Assembly (NCBI GenBank): GCA_964553395.1
Contig: CAZKMH010000003.1
Coordinates: 1-28,960, forward strand
Direction of reading: 5' to 3'
From: an uncultured Rikenellaceae bacterium
GTDB lineage: Bacteria; Bacteroidota; Bacteroidia; Bacteroidales; VadinHA17
DNA length: 28,960 bases
Below, in pieces: positions 6,408 through 28,960 of this stretch; the stretch's first letter is position 1, and each line of letters begins with the position of its first letter. The notes beneath the pieces are model-generated. The model ran no database searches and was not told the DNA's origin. It worked only from the letters and a program-made list of their open reading frames with translations. A program made the position numbers and the translations under genes.

Positions 6408-6437
6408 TTTGGTACCTTCATATTTTTATTATATTTG
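6408..6437 (+). promoter_or_regulatory. Bacteroidota -33/-7 promoter of siaBC
   Basis: TTTG at 6408-6411 and TATATTTG at 6430-6437, 18 nt apart. Confidence 0.6.
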
Positions 6438-6475
6438 CATCGGAAAAACGAGACCTTATTCAAAAAGAAGCTTAG

Positions 6476-7033
6476 ATGAGCTTTGATATTGAAAACTACC
6501 TGAAAGACCAGACGAATAGTAATGTTATCCTTTTTTATAAAGGAAATGTTGATTCAGATGTAATTAATCATGTTCTTGATACTGTTGAGGACAAGCTGGT
6601 TGAAGTAAATGAGCAATCAAAACTCAGGAAAAAGGTCTATAATGTCCTTGTAGAGAGCCTTCAGAATTTATATCATCATGTAGATAAAGTACCGGAAGAC
6701 TTTGAGGATCAGGTATCTGAGAAATTTGGAATGCTGGTTGTCAAGAAGGTCAATAATGGATACAAAATAATTACCGGCAACTTTGTTCGTACCCACAATG
6801 TTGAAAAGCTTGAAGAGAAAATTAAAAGGATTAACAGATCGAGTCACGATGAGATTAAGGAACTCTATAAATTCATCCTTAATCATCAGAGAATTTCGGC
6901 AAAGGGAGGCGGTGGACTTGGTCTGGTGGATATTGCAAGAAAAACAGGTAATAAACTTGAATATACATTTAAAGAATATAATGATAAATACTCATTTTTC
7001 TATCTTGATATTTTAGTAAACGAAGAAAATTAG
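6476..7033 (+). CDS. siaB: SiaB-family protein kinase (DUF6272-like, GHKL fold)
   Basis: N-box-like VESLQNLYHH and G-box GGGGLGLVDIARKTG; lies directly upstream of a SiaC homologue. Confidence 0.85.
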   Translation: MSFDIENYLKDQTNSNVILFYKGNVDSDVINHVLDTVEDKLVEVNEQSKLRKKVYNVLVESLQNLYHHVDKVPEDFEDQVSEKFGMLVVKKVNNGYKIITGNFVRTHNVEKLEEKIKRINRSSHDEIKELYKFILNHQRISAKGGGGLGLVDIARKTGNKLEYTFKEYNDKYSFFYLDILVNEEN

Positions 7034-7081
7034 TGTGCTAACAAGCAATTAAAAAAACAAATAAAATTAAAATCTTATAAA

Positions 7082-7462
7082 ATGGAACCGATTATTATCG
7101 AAGGAACACCGAAAACACCGACTGTAAAATTTGATGCGACCCAGGGTGTGTTTGAAATCAAGGGACGTTCAATTCCTGAAAACTCGGTAGAATTCTATAA
7201 ACCCCTTGTTGACTGGCTCGATAACTACAAAGAATCTCCGCTTACGAAGACAGTTGTAAATATCCGTCTGGAATATTTTAACACCAGTTCCTCTAAATGC
7301 ATCCTTGATGTATTTAAAAAGCTTGAGGCAATACATAAAGCTAAAAACGAGGTCGAAGTTAACTGGTATTATGAGGAGGATGACGAAGATATGCTCGAAG
7401 CAGGTGAGGATTATGAATCCATTATCAGGGTGCCTTTTAAGATGATCGAAATTGCAGAGTGA
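7082..7462 (+). CDS. siaC: SiaC-family regulatory phosphoprotein (DUF1987)
   Basis: TPKTP..F...G.FEIKGRSIPEN, YFNTSSSK with Thr at position 68, acidic WYYEEDDEDMLEAGEDY. Confidence 0.9.
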   Translation: MEPIIIEGTPKTPTVKFDATQGVFEIKGRSIPENSVEFYKPLVDWLDNYKESPLTKTVVNIRLEYFNTSSSKCILDVFKKLEAIHKAKNEVEVNWYYEEDDEDMLEAGEDYESIIRVPFKMIEIAE

Positions 7463-7502
7463 ATTATGAAAATTAGTTGATCTAATAGGAATCGGTTATC
7501 CA

Positions 7503-7544
7503 AAAAACAAAGGGCTGTTTGAATAGAAACAGCCCTTTGTTTTT
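7503..7544. terminator. Bidirectional intrinsic terminator between siaC and the ABC transporter
   Basis: Perfect 18-bp inverted repeat aaaaacaaagggctgttt / aaacagccctttgttttt with a 6-nt loop and a T-tract on each strand. Overlaps the ABC gene stop codon. Confidence 0.88.
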
Positions 7545-10500
7545 ATTCAGGACCCTTGTATTTCTTCCCCATAACGGCTTCGCCGGAATCGAGTAGCTTT
7601 TTAAGCAACCTGAAATAGAGCACAAAATAGAACGCGAATGTCATTAACCACAATACAATGACATTAACCCAGTATGTACCCATATCATAACCGAAGATAC
7701 GTTTCGTTGGTGAGTAGAAATGAGCTTTTATGAAATTGTGCTCAGGATCCATATAAATAGGATCAAGTTTTTGCTTTATTTCTCCCCTGTATTCAATCAC
7801 TTTATCCGGTTCATTTTTGTTGATAACAAATTCTTCCAGTGACTCATTTGCATTGTCATCCCTCAGCTTCAGAAATGCTTTGTTGTCTGATGATTGCAGC
7901 TTTGATATCAGTGCATCTTTCCTGTTCTTTGCTTCATTCGAATACTTAACATAAAACCTTCTTATAGCCTCCAGGTTTTTCAGTGCTGCTGCGACAATAG
8001 GACCTGTAACACTATCAGGTTTAAGGTATTCGATCCTGTCAAATTTATATTCCGGAGTAAGCAGAGCTTCTTTATTCAATTCAGTGTAAACCACCTTCAG
8101 CTTTTTCAGGGATTCCTCACTTACAGTTCCTCTTTTTAGATCAGATGCAACACTTTCCAGCCTTCCCTTGATTTCGGCATGCCAGTAATCTTTTTTAAAT
8201 TTAGCCTTACTCAGCGCTTTGTCAAATACGTAAAACTGCTTCTCATAATCATTGTCCTTAAATTGTTTTACGGCAAGCGCTTCATATCCCCACCGGGCGG
8301 TGATCAGTTCACCATAGATCGGTATTGAAACCGGGGATGATACCTTCGGGTTCAGCTTTTCGAACCTGACCATTATTCCGCTGAGGATTATCTGAGGGAT
8401 AACGAGGAACGGAATTAATATGTAAATAGTTACCACAGACTTGAAACTGTCGGAGATGACCAGGCCAAGCATATTGGCACCGGCCCAGCATGAGAACAGA
8501 ACAAGCCAGTATTCAAACAGCATACCTTTGATTCCGGTTATTGTGTTACCGATCAGAACGAAGGTGAGAGCCTGGATAGCTGATATCCCAAGCTGGACAA
8601 ATACTTTGGACAGCAGATAGCTGTTCCAGCTCAGGTTGAGAAAGGCTTCCCTCTTAAGGATCTTCCTGTCCTTGATGATCTCCTCGGCGCTCACTGTCAA
8701 TCCCATAAAGATGGCAACGATCACCGACATGAAAATAAAGACCGGGAGATTTGTATTTTCAAAGAGCGTATATTTCGGATCGGCTGCACTCTCATCAAAA
8801 TATCTTATGAGTAAGGAGAGGAAAAGGGCAAGAATCGGGGCCTCAAGAAGCGTAATTATCAGATATTGCGTGTCTGCAAACTTCGATAACAGATCACGCT
8901 TTATAAATACTATGAGCTGATTGAGTTTGTTGGGTGTCTTGAAATTGATTTCCGGAATTGAAACTCCCGGTTCAATGAGATCTTCTTTCTTTTCAGCTTT
9001 GTAATGATTGCTCCAGTCTGCCGGTGAAATCCGCCGTATATCCGTCGGCTGTCCGCTTTCCGTGAAAACCCTGGTTTCCACAATATTGAAGATCTGTTCG
9101 GGATTTACATTTCCGCAAACATAACATTCACTCTCATTGTAGTTTGCCTGTTCTATCTTTCTTTTAAAATACTCGATCGATTCGATCGGATTGCCATTGT
9201 AGATCAGGTATCCTCCGGTATCAAGAATGATAAGTTTATCGAACATCTTGAAAATATCAGAGGAGGGTTGATGGATAACAATGAACAGGAGCTTACCTTT
9301 GCGGGTCAGATCTTTGAGCAGGTCGAGGATGTTTTCAGAATCACGTGAAGAGAGTCCTGAGGTCGGTTCGTCGAGAAACATGATCGAGGGCTCGCGGATT
9401 AACTCAAGAGAGATGTTGAGTCGCTTTCTTTGTCCGCCACTGATCTTTTTGTTTAGCGGAGTGCCAACTTTCATGTCCCTGATCTCATACAAACCGAGAT
9501 TCTTCAGAACATTATCAACTTTTTCTGTAACCTCATTATCAGTCAGGTTATCAAAACAGAGTTTCGCATTATAATAAAGGTTCTCGAAGACAGTCAGTTC
9601 CTCAATCAGAAGATCATCCTGGGAAACATAGCCTATGAGTCCCTTGATCTTTTCTTTGTCTTCATAGATGTTAATGCTGTTTATAAGAACGTCACCATCA
9701 GCAGGAGCATTTGTGCCATTCAGAACGCTCAGCAGGGTTGATTTGCCTGCCCCGCTGGCTCCCATTATCCCCACCATTCTGCCTGATTCCTCCCTGAAAC
9801 TCATATGATGGATACCAACCTGCCCGGTTTTGAACCTGTATTCGACATTGTTAACTTCATAAACCACTCTTGACGCCTGGAAATCCTCCTTCAGGAACTG
9901 CATTGTGACATCCCAGTAATAGAGCGGTTTGATTTTATATCCTTTGATTGATGACCCTTCGCCGAAAGGATAGACCTTGTCCTCCATGAGAAGTTGTCCG
10001 TTCATTGAAAGCTCACCCGACTCTGTGAATCTGACAAAATATAGTTTTACCGAAGGCACAAAAAGAAGCCATAACTGCCCCCTGAGAAGTTCTTTATATA
10101 AATGTTTGGCTTCCTTCAGACCACTCTTATGATTCCCATTTATCAACAGAATATTCTGCAAATCAGGGATATGGTCAAATGAGTTAAGGACAAAACTTTC
10201 GATATCGGAGTACTCTTCCCCTGTTATATTCAATCCTTCAGCCAGGGTGCTGATAAATCCCAGTTCAAGCGAATTGACCTCCTTGCCACCCGATTTGCAG
10301 AATTCGAGCGCCTTAATAACAACAAAGATCCTCTGTTCCTGATCGAGCTGACCTTGTTCATTTATCTCCTTGCAGAGTTTCCTTATCCTGATAGCTATTG
10401 CGCCTTCACGACGTTCCTCACTGCTCTTCTGCAGCTTTTTCTTGGCTTCATTGTATGCCAGATCATATTTGGACAGATATTCCTTGACAAGCTCCTGGTT

Positions 10501-10614
10501 AAGGAGCCGGTTCAGGAAAGCCTCAACAACCGCCCGCCTTTCCAAATCATTGGTTTGTGGTTTGCCAATGATAGCGAAGAGCTGCATAAGGGTTTCAAGG
10601 ATCTTTTCACTCAT
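7543..10614 (-). CDS. ABCG-type fused ABC transporter (N-terminal extension + ATPase + permease)
   Basis: Walker A GASGAGKS (aa 285-292), signature ISGGQ, Walker B MFLDE, H-loop VIHQ. C-terminal multi-pass membrane domain with ARWGYEAL. About 250 extra residues at the N-terminus. Confidence 0.88.
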   Translation of the reverse strand: MSEKILETLMQLFAIIGKPQTNDLERRAVVEAFLNRLLNQELVKEYLSKYDLAYNEAKKKLQKSSEERREGAIAIRIRKLCKEINEQGQLDQEQRIFVVIKALEFCKSGGKEVNSLELGFISTLAEGLNITGEEYSDIESFVLNSFDHIPDLQNILLINGNHKSGLKEAKHLYKELLRGQLWLLFVPSVKLYFVRFTESGELSMNGQLLMEDKVYPFGEGSSIKGYKIKPLYYWDVTMQFLKEDFQASRVVYEVNNVEYRFKTGQVGIHHMSFREESGRMVGIMGASGAGKSTLLSVLNGTNAPADGDVLINSINIYEDKEKIKGLIGYVSQDDLLIEELTVFENLYYNAKLCFDNLTDNEVTEKVDNVLKNLGLYEIRDMKVGTPLNKKISGGQRKRLNISLELIREPSIMFLDEPTSGLSSRDSENILDLLKDLTRKGKLLFIVIHQPSSDIFKMFDKLIILDTGGYLIYNGNPIESIEYFKRKIEQANYNESECYVCGNVNPEQIFNIVETRVFTESGQPTDIRRISPADWSNHYKAEKKEDLIEPGVSIPEINFKTPNKLNQLIVFIKRDLLSKFADTQYLIITLLEAPILALFLSLLIRYFDESAADPKYTLFENTNLPVFIFMSVIVAIFMGLTVSAEEIIKDRKILKREAFLNLSWNSYLLSKVFVQLGISAIQALTFVLIGNTITGIKGMLFEYWLVLFSCWAGANMLGLVISDSFKSVVTIYILIPFLVIPQIILSGIMVRFEKLNPKVSSPVSIPIYGELITARWGYEALAVKQFKDNDYEKQFYVFDKALSKAKFKKDYWHAEIKGRLESVASDLKRGTVSEESLKKLKVVYTELNKEALLTPEYKFDRIEYLKPDSVTGPIVAAALKNLEAIRRFYVKYSNEAKNRKDALISKLQSSDNKAFLKLRDDNANESLEEFVINKNEPDKVIEYRGEIKQKLDPIYMDPEHNFIKAHFYSPTKRIFGYDMGTYWVNVIVLWLMTFAFYFVLYFRLLKKLLDSGEAVMGKKYKGPE

Positions 10615-13453: not shown

Positions 13454-13789
13454 TTATCTCATCGACATCAAACATTCATCGACAGTTTCATAAATCTCAA
13501 ATACCGTGTGCAGGTTAAGGGTTTTGAAAACCCTGAGTACATCAGATTCAGGCCCGGCAAACTTCAGTATCCCATAATTATTTCTTGCTGATCTCATTAC
13601 TGAAAGGAAACACCCGTAACCGGTGCTGTCGATATAGTGTATACCCTTCAGATCTATTATCACCTTCGCATTGGCATTATCGAATACCTTGCTTATTTCA
13701 TCCTTCAGATCATCTGCAATAAGGGCATTGATCCTGTCTACAGAAAATGTAATTATATCAATTTTACCACGCTTTTCAATGTTGATCAT
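13454..13789 (-). CDS. STAS-domain anti-sigma factor antagonist
   Basis: VIIDLKGIHYIDSTGYG (DS(T)G phospho-serine motif) and typical STAS length (111 aa). Confidence 0.88.
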   Translation of the reverse strand: MINIEKRGKIDIITFSVDRINALIADDLKDEISKVFDNANAKVIIDLKGIHYIDSTGYGCFLSVMRSARNNYGILKFAGPESDVLRVFKTLNLHTVFEIYETVDECLMSMR

Positions 13790-14152
13790 TCATTTCTGTT
13801 TTAGCCTGTTATTTACCAAGTCATCCAGCTCATTAACAGCTTCAGAGGTATCATTGGCAAACCTTGTAATATATGATTCATATTTATCGGTTTCTATGCC
13901 CTCTTTGGCCTGCAGCTCAAGTGTCTTGAGCATGGAACCAAGATCATTCATACCCATAATCAAAACAGACGACTTCGCCTTATGAGCAAGGAGCCCGAGG
14001 GAATTATAATCCTTTTCCGAAAAAAGCTTTTTCATCTGGATATGAGTTTCTGCGACCTGATCACGGAACAAATTGACTAATTCACGAATTATTTCAGTGT
14101 CCCCGTCTGAAACCGAATCAAGATAATCAGTATTAATAAACTTATAATCCAT
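13790..14152 (-). CDS. Stand-alone Hpt (histidine phosphotransfer) protein
   Basis: All-helical, LGLLAHKAKSS with the phospho-accepting His, then G...L...LE. Its TGA directly abuts the STAS ATG (TGAATG). Confidence 0.85.
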   Translation of the reverse strand: MDYKFINTDYLDSVSDGDTEIIRELVNLFRDQVAETHIQMKKLFSEKDYNSLGLLAHKAKSSVLIMGMNDLGSMLKTLELQAKEGIETDKYESYITRFANDTSEAVNELDDLVNNRLKQK

Positions 14153-28557: not shown

Positions 28558-28960
28558 ATGAGTAAAACGATTTCCGATTATGAACTCATTCAGAGATTCA
28601 TAAAAGGTGAGCAGACCTGCTTTGAGCAGATAATCCACCGTCATAAAAATAAAGTTTTTGCGTATATAAGTTTATATATACGCGATCAGGCACTTGCTGA
28701 AGACCTGTTTCAGGATACCTTCATGAAAGTGATCCAGTCCGTTAAAACCGGCAAGTACCAGGATAACGGAAAGTTCATTTCATGGGTAATGCGTATAGCC
28801 CATAACCTTATAATCGACCATTTCAGGCGGATCAATGATTCCTACGGGTATCCCCGGGGGGACATTGTGCTCCGCGCAGTCGCTGAGCTATTTCAGCAGG
28901 TCATCAGGAAACCTGATACGGCAGTCAGGTACGGCGGGGAGGAGTTTGCCGTGATTGTCC
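28558..28960 (+). CDS. ECF sigma-70 factor N-terminal part (region 2) joined in frame to a GGDEF-domain fragment; runs off the window end
   Basis: My translation: MSKTISDYELIQRFIKGEQTCFEQIIHRHKNKVFAYISLYIRDQALAEDLFQDTFMKVIQSVKTGKYQDNGKFISWVMRIAHNLIIDHFRRINDSYGYPRGDIVLRAVAELFQQVIRKPDTAVRYGGEEFAVIV. AEDLFQDTF and SWVMRIAHNLIIDHFR are ECF region 2 motifs; NDSYG..GD and RYGGEEF are GGDEF motifs. Missing from the ORF track because it has no stop codon. Confidence 0.85.
   Translation, partial: MSKTISDYELIQRFIKGEQTCFEQIIHRHKNKVFAYISLYIRDQALAEDLFQDTFMKVIQSVKTGKYQDNGKFISWVMRIAHNLIIDHFRRINDSYGYPRGDIVLRAVAELFQQVIRKPDTAVRYGGEEFAVIV

Follow-up and report, generated by a model that had tools for sequence, protein, structure and literature searches.

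A SiaB/SiaC-type kinase and substrate pair of Bacteroidales with a target that is probably not a SiaD-type cyclase

What does a Sia-type phosphorylation switch act on when neither the phosphatase nor the diguanylate cyclase of the known system is encoded beside it? The question is raised by the two-gene locus siaB–siaC in a 28,960-base stretch of contig CAZKMH010000003.1 (the window; coordinates below are window positions), which derives from an uncultured wetland-sediment Bacteroidales that has been assembled independently in several samples of the Joint Genome Institute (JGI). In Pseudomonas, a switch of this kind governs biofilm formation. The mechanism by which SiaB, SiaC and SiaA work at Thr68 of SiaC has been published for Pseudomonas aeruginosa (PMC7647112, PMC8457831), and mass spectrometry has shown that Thr68 is the residue targeted by SiaB and SiaA (PMC7647112). 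We propose, with a probability of roughly 0.7 and on the basis of sequence and gene context, that the Bacteroidales pair would be the kinase/substrate core of a SiaABC-type partner switch that has lost its linkage to input and output, with a target other than a cyclase and a phosphatase encoded at an unlinked position. The elements of the locus are as follows.

6408..6437, + strand: promoter of the Bacteroidota type, with a -33 element TTTG (6408-6411), a spacer of 18 nucleotides (nt) and a -7 element TATATTTG (6430-6437)
6476..7033, + strand: siaB, a SiaB-family GHKL Ser/Thr protein kinase (DUF6272) of 185 amino acids (aa); NF038262, PF19788, PDB 6KKO_A
7082..7462, + strand: siaC, a SiaC-family (DUF1987) phospho-acceptor protein of 126 aa with Thr68 in LEYFNTSSSK; PF09345, PDB 6KKO_C
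7503..7544, strand not assigned: bidirectional intrinsic terminator hairpin with an 18-bp stem, serving siaC and the convergent ABC gene

The two genes are separated by 48 bases, and both products were assigned to their families by scores above the cut-offs. SiaB reached 149.6 bits against the NCBIfam model NF038262, 'SiaB family protein kinase' (cut-off 85), and 132.6 bits against Pfam DUF6272 (PF19788; cut-off 26.6), and it matched chain A of PDB entry 6KKO, which is P. aeruginosa SiaB, with an E-value of 2e-10. GHKL boxes of the kinase were retained (E..QN..HH, T.NF and KG.GGLG..D...K.G). Its N-box VESLQNLYHH and its G-box GGGGLGLVDIARKTG (also given as GGGGLGLVDIARK) align with the corresponding boxes of P. 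aeruginosa SiaB, and both are invariant across 91 orthologues. SiaC matched Pfam PF09345 over model positions 1-119 of 120 with 159.9 bits (gathering cut-off 24.5). The match to the P. aeruginosa SiaC structures 6KKO_C and 6K4F (E-value 4e-18) contained no gaps and so places Thr68 of the window protein (LEYFNTSSSK) opposite the phospho-acceptor Thr68 of P. aeruginosa (LLYLNTSSIK). Residues N67, T68 and S69 were invariant in our alignment A2, and Y65, N67 and S70 were at least 90% conserved in the more diverse alignment A1. Searches with the family hidden Markov models found no second copy of SiaB or SiaC in the window.

Transcription signals lie on either side of the pair. The sequence TTTG-N18-TATATTTG was the sole full match to TTTG-N17-21-TAnnTTTG on either strand of the window. 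Of 149 related loci, 76 had the full motif 5' of siaB, as against 0.4% of shuffled sequences, and 136 had the -7 box by itself, as against 16.5% of shuffles. The hairpin at 7503-7544, which had escaped a simple terminator scan, consists of a perfect 18-bp stem with runs of A and T on its two sides; its folding energy was -26.6 kcal/mol (z = -7.9), and not one of 200 shuffled sequences folded as stably. Metatranscriptome data contained only three short contigs for the operon, too few to locate the ends of a transcript; one of them, 151 nt long, was identical to siaC at 7254-7404, a slight hint that the gene is expressed. The pair is a genuine module of the SiaB/SiaC type, equipped with a promoter and a terminator of its own. 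The original prediction, made from the letters of this stretch, had described just such a two-gene unit in which SiaC keeps a threonine at position 68 and SiaB its ATP-binding boxes. The motif at 6408-6437 and the hairpin at 7503-7544 bear out the first point, and the gap-free alignment to 6KKO_C/6K4F and the alignment of the N- and G-boxes with 6KKO_A bear out the others.

The conservation of the pair was examined with a scan of one genome per GTDB species, led by alignment A2, in which all the loci returned had a SiaC at least 79% identical to that of the window. More than 590 SiaC relatives were confirmed, and the best 80 came throughout from metagenome-assembled genomes (MAGs) of Bacteroidales. 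In every one of the 79 related loci with room upstream, siaB stood immediately 5' of siaC. Over 83 related loci the identity of SiaC ranged from 79 to 97%, with a median of 89.7%; the medians for other proteins of the same loci were 80.6% for ClpB (range 64-85%), 74.7% for GuaA (67-81%), 69.8% for SiaB (50-89%), 67.9% for the convergent exporter and 55% for RlmL. Among 97 loci of the window type, 74 of the 126 positions of SiaC were at least 97% invariant, compared with 37 of 185 in SiaB. Judged from these genomes, the pair belongs to the core of the lineage and is no local oddity. The SiaC family as a whole comprises 5,180 representatives at the 50% clustering level, and our literature search found no work on DUF1987 or DUF6272 outside Pseudomonas. 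Within the family we also noted predicted single-chain fusions of SiaB and SiaC (DUF6272-SiaC; P0132, P0151, P0215 and P0241), a predicted TIR-SiaC fusion (P0139), a HEAT-repeat protein with two SiaC domains (P0142) and numerous predicted proteins with SiaC domains in tandem (P0123-P0128).

Several observations argue that SiaC probably does not serve a cyclase. None of the 2,006 open reading frames of at least 100 codons in 165 SiaC loci (2.1 Mb), complete phosphatase-kinase-SiaC operons included, contained a GG[DE]EF motif. The only GGDEF match in the window was a fragment of 49 residues fused to region 2 of an extracytoplasmic function (ECF) sigma factor in the last bases of the stretch (28558-28959). 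Since that place is occupied by a normal ECF sigma gene of 192-195 aa in four independent contigs from the same organism (L102-L105), the fragment is an assembly chimera, and we rejected it as a SiaD candidate. The residues with which SiaC contacts the stalk of SiaD are known from the crystal structure of the SiaC–SiaD complex (PMC8457831). Alignment of the window protein to P. aeruginosa SiaC revealed the changes D79K, R103D, D114I, D29R, Y31I and Q10P at these positions, together with E110D, M75L and L107A, of which only E110D and M75L are conservative. Two of the replacements reverse charge, and throughout the lineage the new residues vary little or not at all. Residues Y65, N67, T68 and S69 of the phospho-loop were retained. 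The replacement of SiaD-contact residues by other residues that are themselves conserved points to a partner that is not a SiaD-type cyclase. In a census published in 2005, none of the four Bacteroidetes genomes available by then encoded a diguanylate cyclase (PMC1183210). Taken together, the sequences indicate that the target of SiaC is probably not a diguanylate cyclase of the SiaD type.

No SpoIIE/PP2C domain was detected in the window, and none of the 97 window-type loci carried a SpoIIE gene within ~10 kb. A second scan, run on metagenomes with an alignment led by a distant member (A4), reached a sister clade whose SiaC is 65-74% identical to that of the window. Here the pair belongs to an operon on one strand, in the order Reg_prop/Y_Y_Y/SpoIIE phosphatase, lipoprotein, SiaB, SiaC:

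L110-L134 and L187-L189, for example L114 3126-8375 and L188 10001-15101: sister-clade four-gene operon, all genes on one strand

The phosphatase of ~1100 aa consists of ~14 Reg_prop blades, a Y_Y_Y domain and a C-terminal SpoIIE domain, and its gene lay directly 5' of SiaB-SiaC in 15 of the 17 loci that carry SpoIIE, usually with the lipoprotein gene between them. The lipoprotein, of ~275 aa, belongs to no Pfam family and is 26-51% identical between loci; no homologue of it was found in the window or in the window-type loci. A search that started from the phosphatase detected hundreds of such proteins in MAGs of Bacteroidia, and P0378, among the most distant of them (61% identical), sits in the same four-gene operon. 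A further homologue, P0138, was found directly behind a TPR-PAS-SpoIIE gene. Sixty-three SiaC positions are invariant in the window-type and the sister-clade groups alike, and the genes downstream of the sister-clade operon vary (M23 peptidase, DeoC, acyltransferase).

The sister-clade operon indicates that the SiaB/SiaC switch of Bacteroidota has a cognate type of sensor-phosphatase. In the lineage of the window the linkage to this phosphatase appears to have been broken, with RlmL now upstream of the pair, and the cognate phosphatase is most likely encoded elsewhere in the genome. The original prediction had called the unit self-contained, without siaA or siaD beside it. The second half of that description holds for the window and for the 97 window-type loci. 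The comparison of neighbourhoods divides in the same way: none of the 165 loci has a GG[DE]EF motif, but the pair is probably not self-contained, since the sister clade joins it to a SpoIIE phosphatase and a lipoprotein.

By homology with the P. aeruginosa proteins, the small GHKL kinase SiaB would phosphorylate SiaC at Thr68. Unphosphorylated SiaC would bind and regulate its target through the remodelled alpha2/alpha3 face, and phosphorylation of Thr68 would block this binding. To judge by the sister clade, a membrane sensor phosphatase of the PP2C/SpoIIE type, most likely the propeller/Y_Y_Y type and unlinked to the pair, would reset SiaC. Sequence and context suggest that the target may be a highly conserved protein, or set of proteins, other than a cyclase, which would account for the finding that SiaC is better conserved than housekeeping enzymes. 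The following points weigh against this proposal. SiaB scored 69 bits against the equivalog model NF038264 (biofilm regulation kinase SiaB; cut-off 225) and SiaC 101.3 bits against the equivalog model NF038265 (cut-off 150), so that both proteins belong to the families without being orthologous to those of Pseudomonas. That phosphatase and cyclase genes are absent is a result for the window and for neighbourhoods of ~10 kb, and an unlinked SiaD-like cyclase, or a genome without any PP2C, is conceivable. The evidence of expression is a single short contig, which could be carry-over of DNA. Finally, our literature search found no demonstration of phosphorylation, of a phosphatase or of a target for any Bacteroidota member.

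A candidate for the target is encoded on the opposite strand, directly beyond the terminator of siaC. The parts of this gene that matter here are listed below.

7543..10614, - strand: ABCG-type exporter of 1023 aa, candidate target of SiaC; PF00005, PF01061, TIGR00955-like
9919..10152, - strand: FHA-like beta domain, exporter residues 155-232, from an AlphaFold model and Foldseek
10186..10614, - strand: seven-helix N-terminal domain, exporter residues 1-143, model confidence (pLDDT) 89.3

The exporter and siaC are convergent and the terminator is common to both. The protein is composed, in order, of the helical domain, the FHA-like domain, an ABC ATPase, an ABC-2 permease and a C-terminal extension with a last transmembrane helix; this extension measures ~265 aa and ends in the additional helix. 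An exporter gene was present and convergent in 73 of the 78 loci with room for it. It stays in place although the genes on its far side change, at least eight families being represented there (among them clpB, the Hpt-STAS pair and two distinct pairs of small exported proteins), and it is kept where the upstream RlmL has been replaced (L121, L127, L145, L162 and L163). In some loci the exporter is the last gene of an operon, following a PepSY-TM-like protein and a small lipoprotein in L126 and L077 and two other exported proteins in L127 and L145.

An AlphaFold model of the first 265 residues of the exporter (mean pLDDT 86.6) showed seven helices followed by a beta domain. With the latter, the top 50 Foldseek matches in the PDB were all FHA domains, the best being that of MEK1 (5yyz) with a probability of 1.0, an E-value of only 0.013 and a TM (target) value of ~0.5. 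A sequence profile of the beta domain likewise matched the FHA domain of MEK1 as its sole, weak match (E-value 0.16). The Pfam model for FHA (PF00498) did not match the beta domain even at E-values up to 10. In place of the S-x-N-G signature stands x-G-E-L, whose glutamate is invariant, and the Asn-Gly of the MEK1 motif S-L-N-G faces Gly-Glu201. We rejected a canonical FHA assignment, there being no Pfam match and the signature residues (of the G-R, S-x-x-H and S-x-N-G pattern) being absent. The helical domain had no match in Pfam and no significant fold match in the PDB (best probability 0.21, E-value > 2.7), and a 'TerB-like' label for it is unsupported on these grounds. FHA domains are readers of phosphothreonine, which makes the adjacency of the exporter and siaBC suggestive. 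By its position the exporter is the best candidate for the target of SiaC, though a weak one.

Copies of SiaC were also detected in large phage-like contigs from IMG/VR and ENA, at the following positions.

L093 8001-8372: phage-like SiaC copy
L096 10001-10372: phage-like SiaC copy
L097/L098 10001-10381: phage-like SiaC copies
L099 9452-9820 (- strand) and 9977-10342 (+ strand): two phage-like SiaC copies
L100/L101 10001-10360: phage-like SiaC copies

Phage-like contigs of 135-167 kb carry P0122, a SiaC homologue 69% identical to SiaC of the window that keeps nearly all the residues invariant in the lineage, Thr68 included. The same contigs encode a head-maturation protease and other phage families (PHROG, L096). 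SiaC homologues with identities of 37-56% were found on five more IMG/VR contigs, 45-367 kb in length. No SiaB gene was found within 10 kb of a phage SiaC, and a search of the GenBank phage genomes (INPHARED) returned no SiaC match. The phage proteins may mimic the switch protein of the host; an orphan phage SiaC would fit a SiaC that acts on a target itself, or one that titrates the host kinase.

Other genes of a regulatory kind lie in the same syntenic block of the window, namely STAS1 (3-320), STAS2 (13454-13789) and Hpt (13790-14152). STAS1 is as conserved as SiaC (median identity 92%). In ~70 of 97 loci the Hpt-STAS2 pair is found immediately 5' of the exporter on the exporter strand, or just past clpB, and neither a kinase nor a phosphatase for the STAS and Hpt genes was found in the window. 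STAS1 is followed immediately by a gene of the metallo-beta-lactamase fold (339-1268), which has RNase Z-like and anti-Pycsar Apyc1-like Pfam matches, and this pairing is conserved across loci.

How the switch produces its output could be explained in ways other than the one proposed. In one explanation, a specific version of our proposal and compatible with it, SiaC in one of its phospho-states would dock on the cytoplasmic N-terminal helical and FHA-like module of the exporter and gate export. The persistence of the adjacency while both flanks change speaks for this idea, as do the modelled FHA fold of residues 155-232, with which the MEK1 profile match agrees, the correspondence between phosphothreonine reading by FHA domains and the threonine phosphorylation carried out by SiaB and SiaC, and the Hpt-STAS pair found near the exporter in ~70 of the 97 loci. 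However, the convergent orientation precludes co-transcription with siaBC, and Bacteroidales share broad synteny over the whole region, so that the adjacency may be historical. Moreover, no exporter lies near the loci with the SpoIIE operon (SiaC 65-74%) or near the 54% homologue L090 (siaB-siaC-coaE), Pfam misses the FHA-like domain, in which S-x-N-G is replaced, and the Foldseek E-value was 0.013 at best. Such gating would have a parallel in Rv1747 of Mycobacterium tuberculosis, an ABC exporter with FHA domains that is controlled through Ser/Thr phosphorylation by the kinase PknF. We regard the docking of SiaC on the exporter as unlikely. A bolder picture, in which SiaC would be a near-invariant hub of Bacteroidales, Thr68 would gate the exporter through the helical/FHA-like module independently of cyclic di-GMP (c-di-GMP), many unlinked sensor phosphatases would feed in and large Bacteroidota phages would take over the control point during infection with a SiaC that comes without a kinase, seems to us quite unlikely.

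The output could instead pass through the kinase. In the manner of RsbW and SpoIIAB, SiaB would sequester a transcription factor, a sigma factor or an enzyme, and unphosphorylated SiaC would release it. SiaB is indeed a GHKL protein of the anti-sigma-kinase type, SiaABC has been called a partner-switching system (PMC7647112), and further components of partner switches (two STAS genes, an Hpt gene and an ECF sigma gene) occur in the window and its relatives. Against this, SiaB evolves much faster than SiaC, both in its range of identities and in its share of invariant positions, and the far stronger constraint on SiaC fits SiaC as a hub with several partners. The output in P. aeruginosa also passes through SiaC, and the phages that carry SiaC without SiaB are better explained by a SiaC acting on a target, though titration of SiaB is possible. 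An output through the kinase is, on balance, decidedly improbable. It is also conceivable that this is an ordinary Sia system that has been split, its SiaD-type cyclase and its SiaA phosphatase being encoded at other places in the genome and SiaC controlling c-di-GMP. The GGDEF fragment at the end of the window would be its support, but the fragment is chimeric, the four contigs showing a plain ECF sigma gene in its place. The lack of GG[DE]EF from the 165 loci, full phosphatase-kinase-SiaC operons included, the replacement of every one of the stalk contacts D79, R103, D114, D29, Y31 and Q10 and the early Bacteroidetes genomes without cyclases (PMC1183210) all speak against a split system, which we consider very improbable indeed.

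Our preferred reading remains that of a partner switch acting on a target other than a cyclase. Bacteroidales dominate communities of the gut and of sediments, yet what is known of their signalling comes chiefly from hybrid two-component systems and pairs of ECF sigma and anti-sigma factors. The present switch, which would work by threonine phosphorylation, is among the most conserved genes of its region in hundreds of species; in relatives it is tied to phosphatases of the glycan-sensor type, and it has been copied by phages. Since the families of its components are annotated and their logic is known, it represents a variant arrangement rather than a new kind of system. An experiment to find what SiaC, among the best conserved small proteins of the order, acts on would nevertheless be worthwhile: knowing the target would define a use of Sia that is independent of c-di-GMP and probably reveal a new level of control in the physiology of Bacteroidota. 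Experimental handles are provided by T68, by the remodelled alpha2/alpha3 face and by the candidate exporter with its FHA-like domain.

The closest known system is SiaABCD of P. aeruginosa (PA0172-PA0169; 6KKO, 6KKP, 6K4F, 7E6G), which has the same order of kinase gene and siaC, the same SiaB-type GHKL kinase and the same DUF1987 protein with its acceptor Thr68 in an N-T-S-S loop at the start of helix alpha2. Residue W95 of the hydrophobic pocket and the N- and G-boxes of the kinase are also conserved in the window proteins. The pair described here differs in that siaA and siaD are found neither in its operon nor within ~10 kb, in that its SiaC is only ~30% identical to the P. aeruginosa protein and carries replacements at the SiaD contacts, and in that both proteins lie below the equivalog cut-offs. 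The phosphatases differ as well: SiaA has a sensor-HAMP module, whereas the linked phosphatase of Bacteroidota has a periplasmic sensor of the propeller/Y_Y_Y type, and a lipoprotein gene is added. The Bacteroidota four-gene operon contains the same SiaB/SiaC subfamily as the window and likewise lacks a cyclase. There the genes for the phosphatase and the lipoprotein share a transcript with the pair, which has no ABCG exporter next to it, whereas the window locus has RlmL upstream, the exporter downstream and no linked phosphatase.

The same logic of a GHKL kinase, a small phospho-acceptor with a STAS-like fold and a PP2C phosphatase operates in RsbW-RsbV and SpoIIAB-SpoIIAA, and the structure of SiaC is closest to that of an anti-sigma-factor antagonist (PMC7647112). 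Those systems differ from Sia in that DUF1987 and DUF6272 are separate sequence families, that the Sia acceptor is a threonine rather than a serine and that no sigma factor is apparent as a target. With Rv1747 the neighbouring exporter shares an ABC-2/ABCG-like architecture, an N-terminal regulatory domain that is putatively of the FHA type here and a position beside a Ser/Thr phosphorylation system. It differs from Rv1747 in having one degenerate FHA-like domain, placed after a seven-helix domain, in which the canonical phosphothreonine-binding residues are unrecognisable, and its neighbouring kinase is of the GHKL type and not of the Hanks type.

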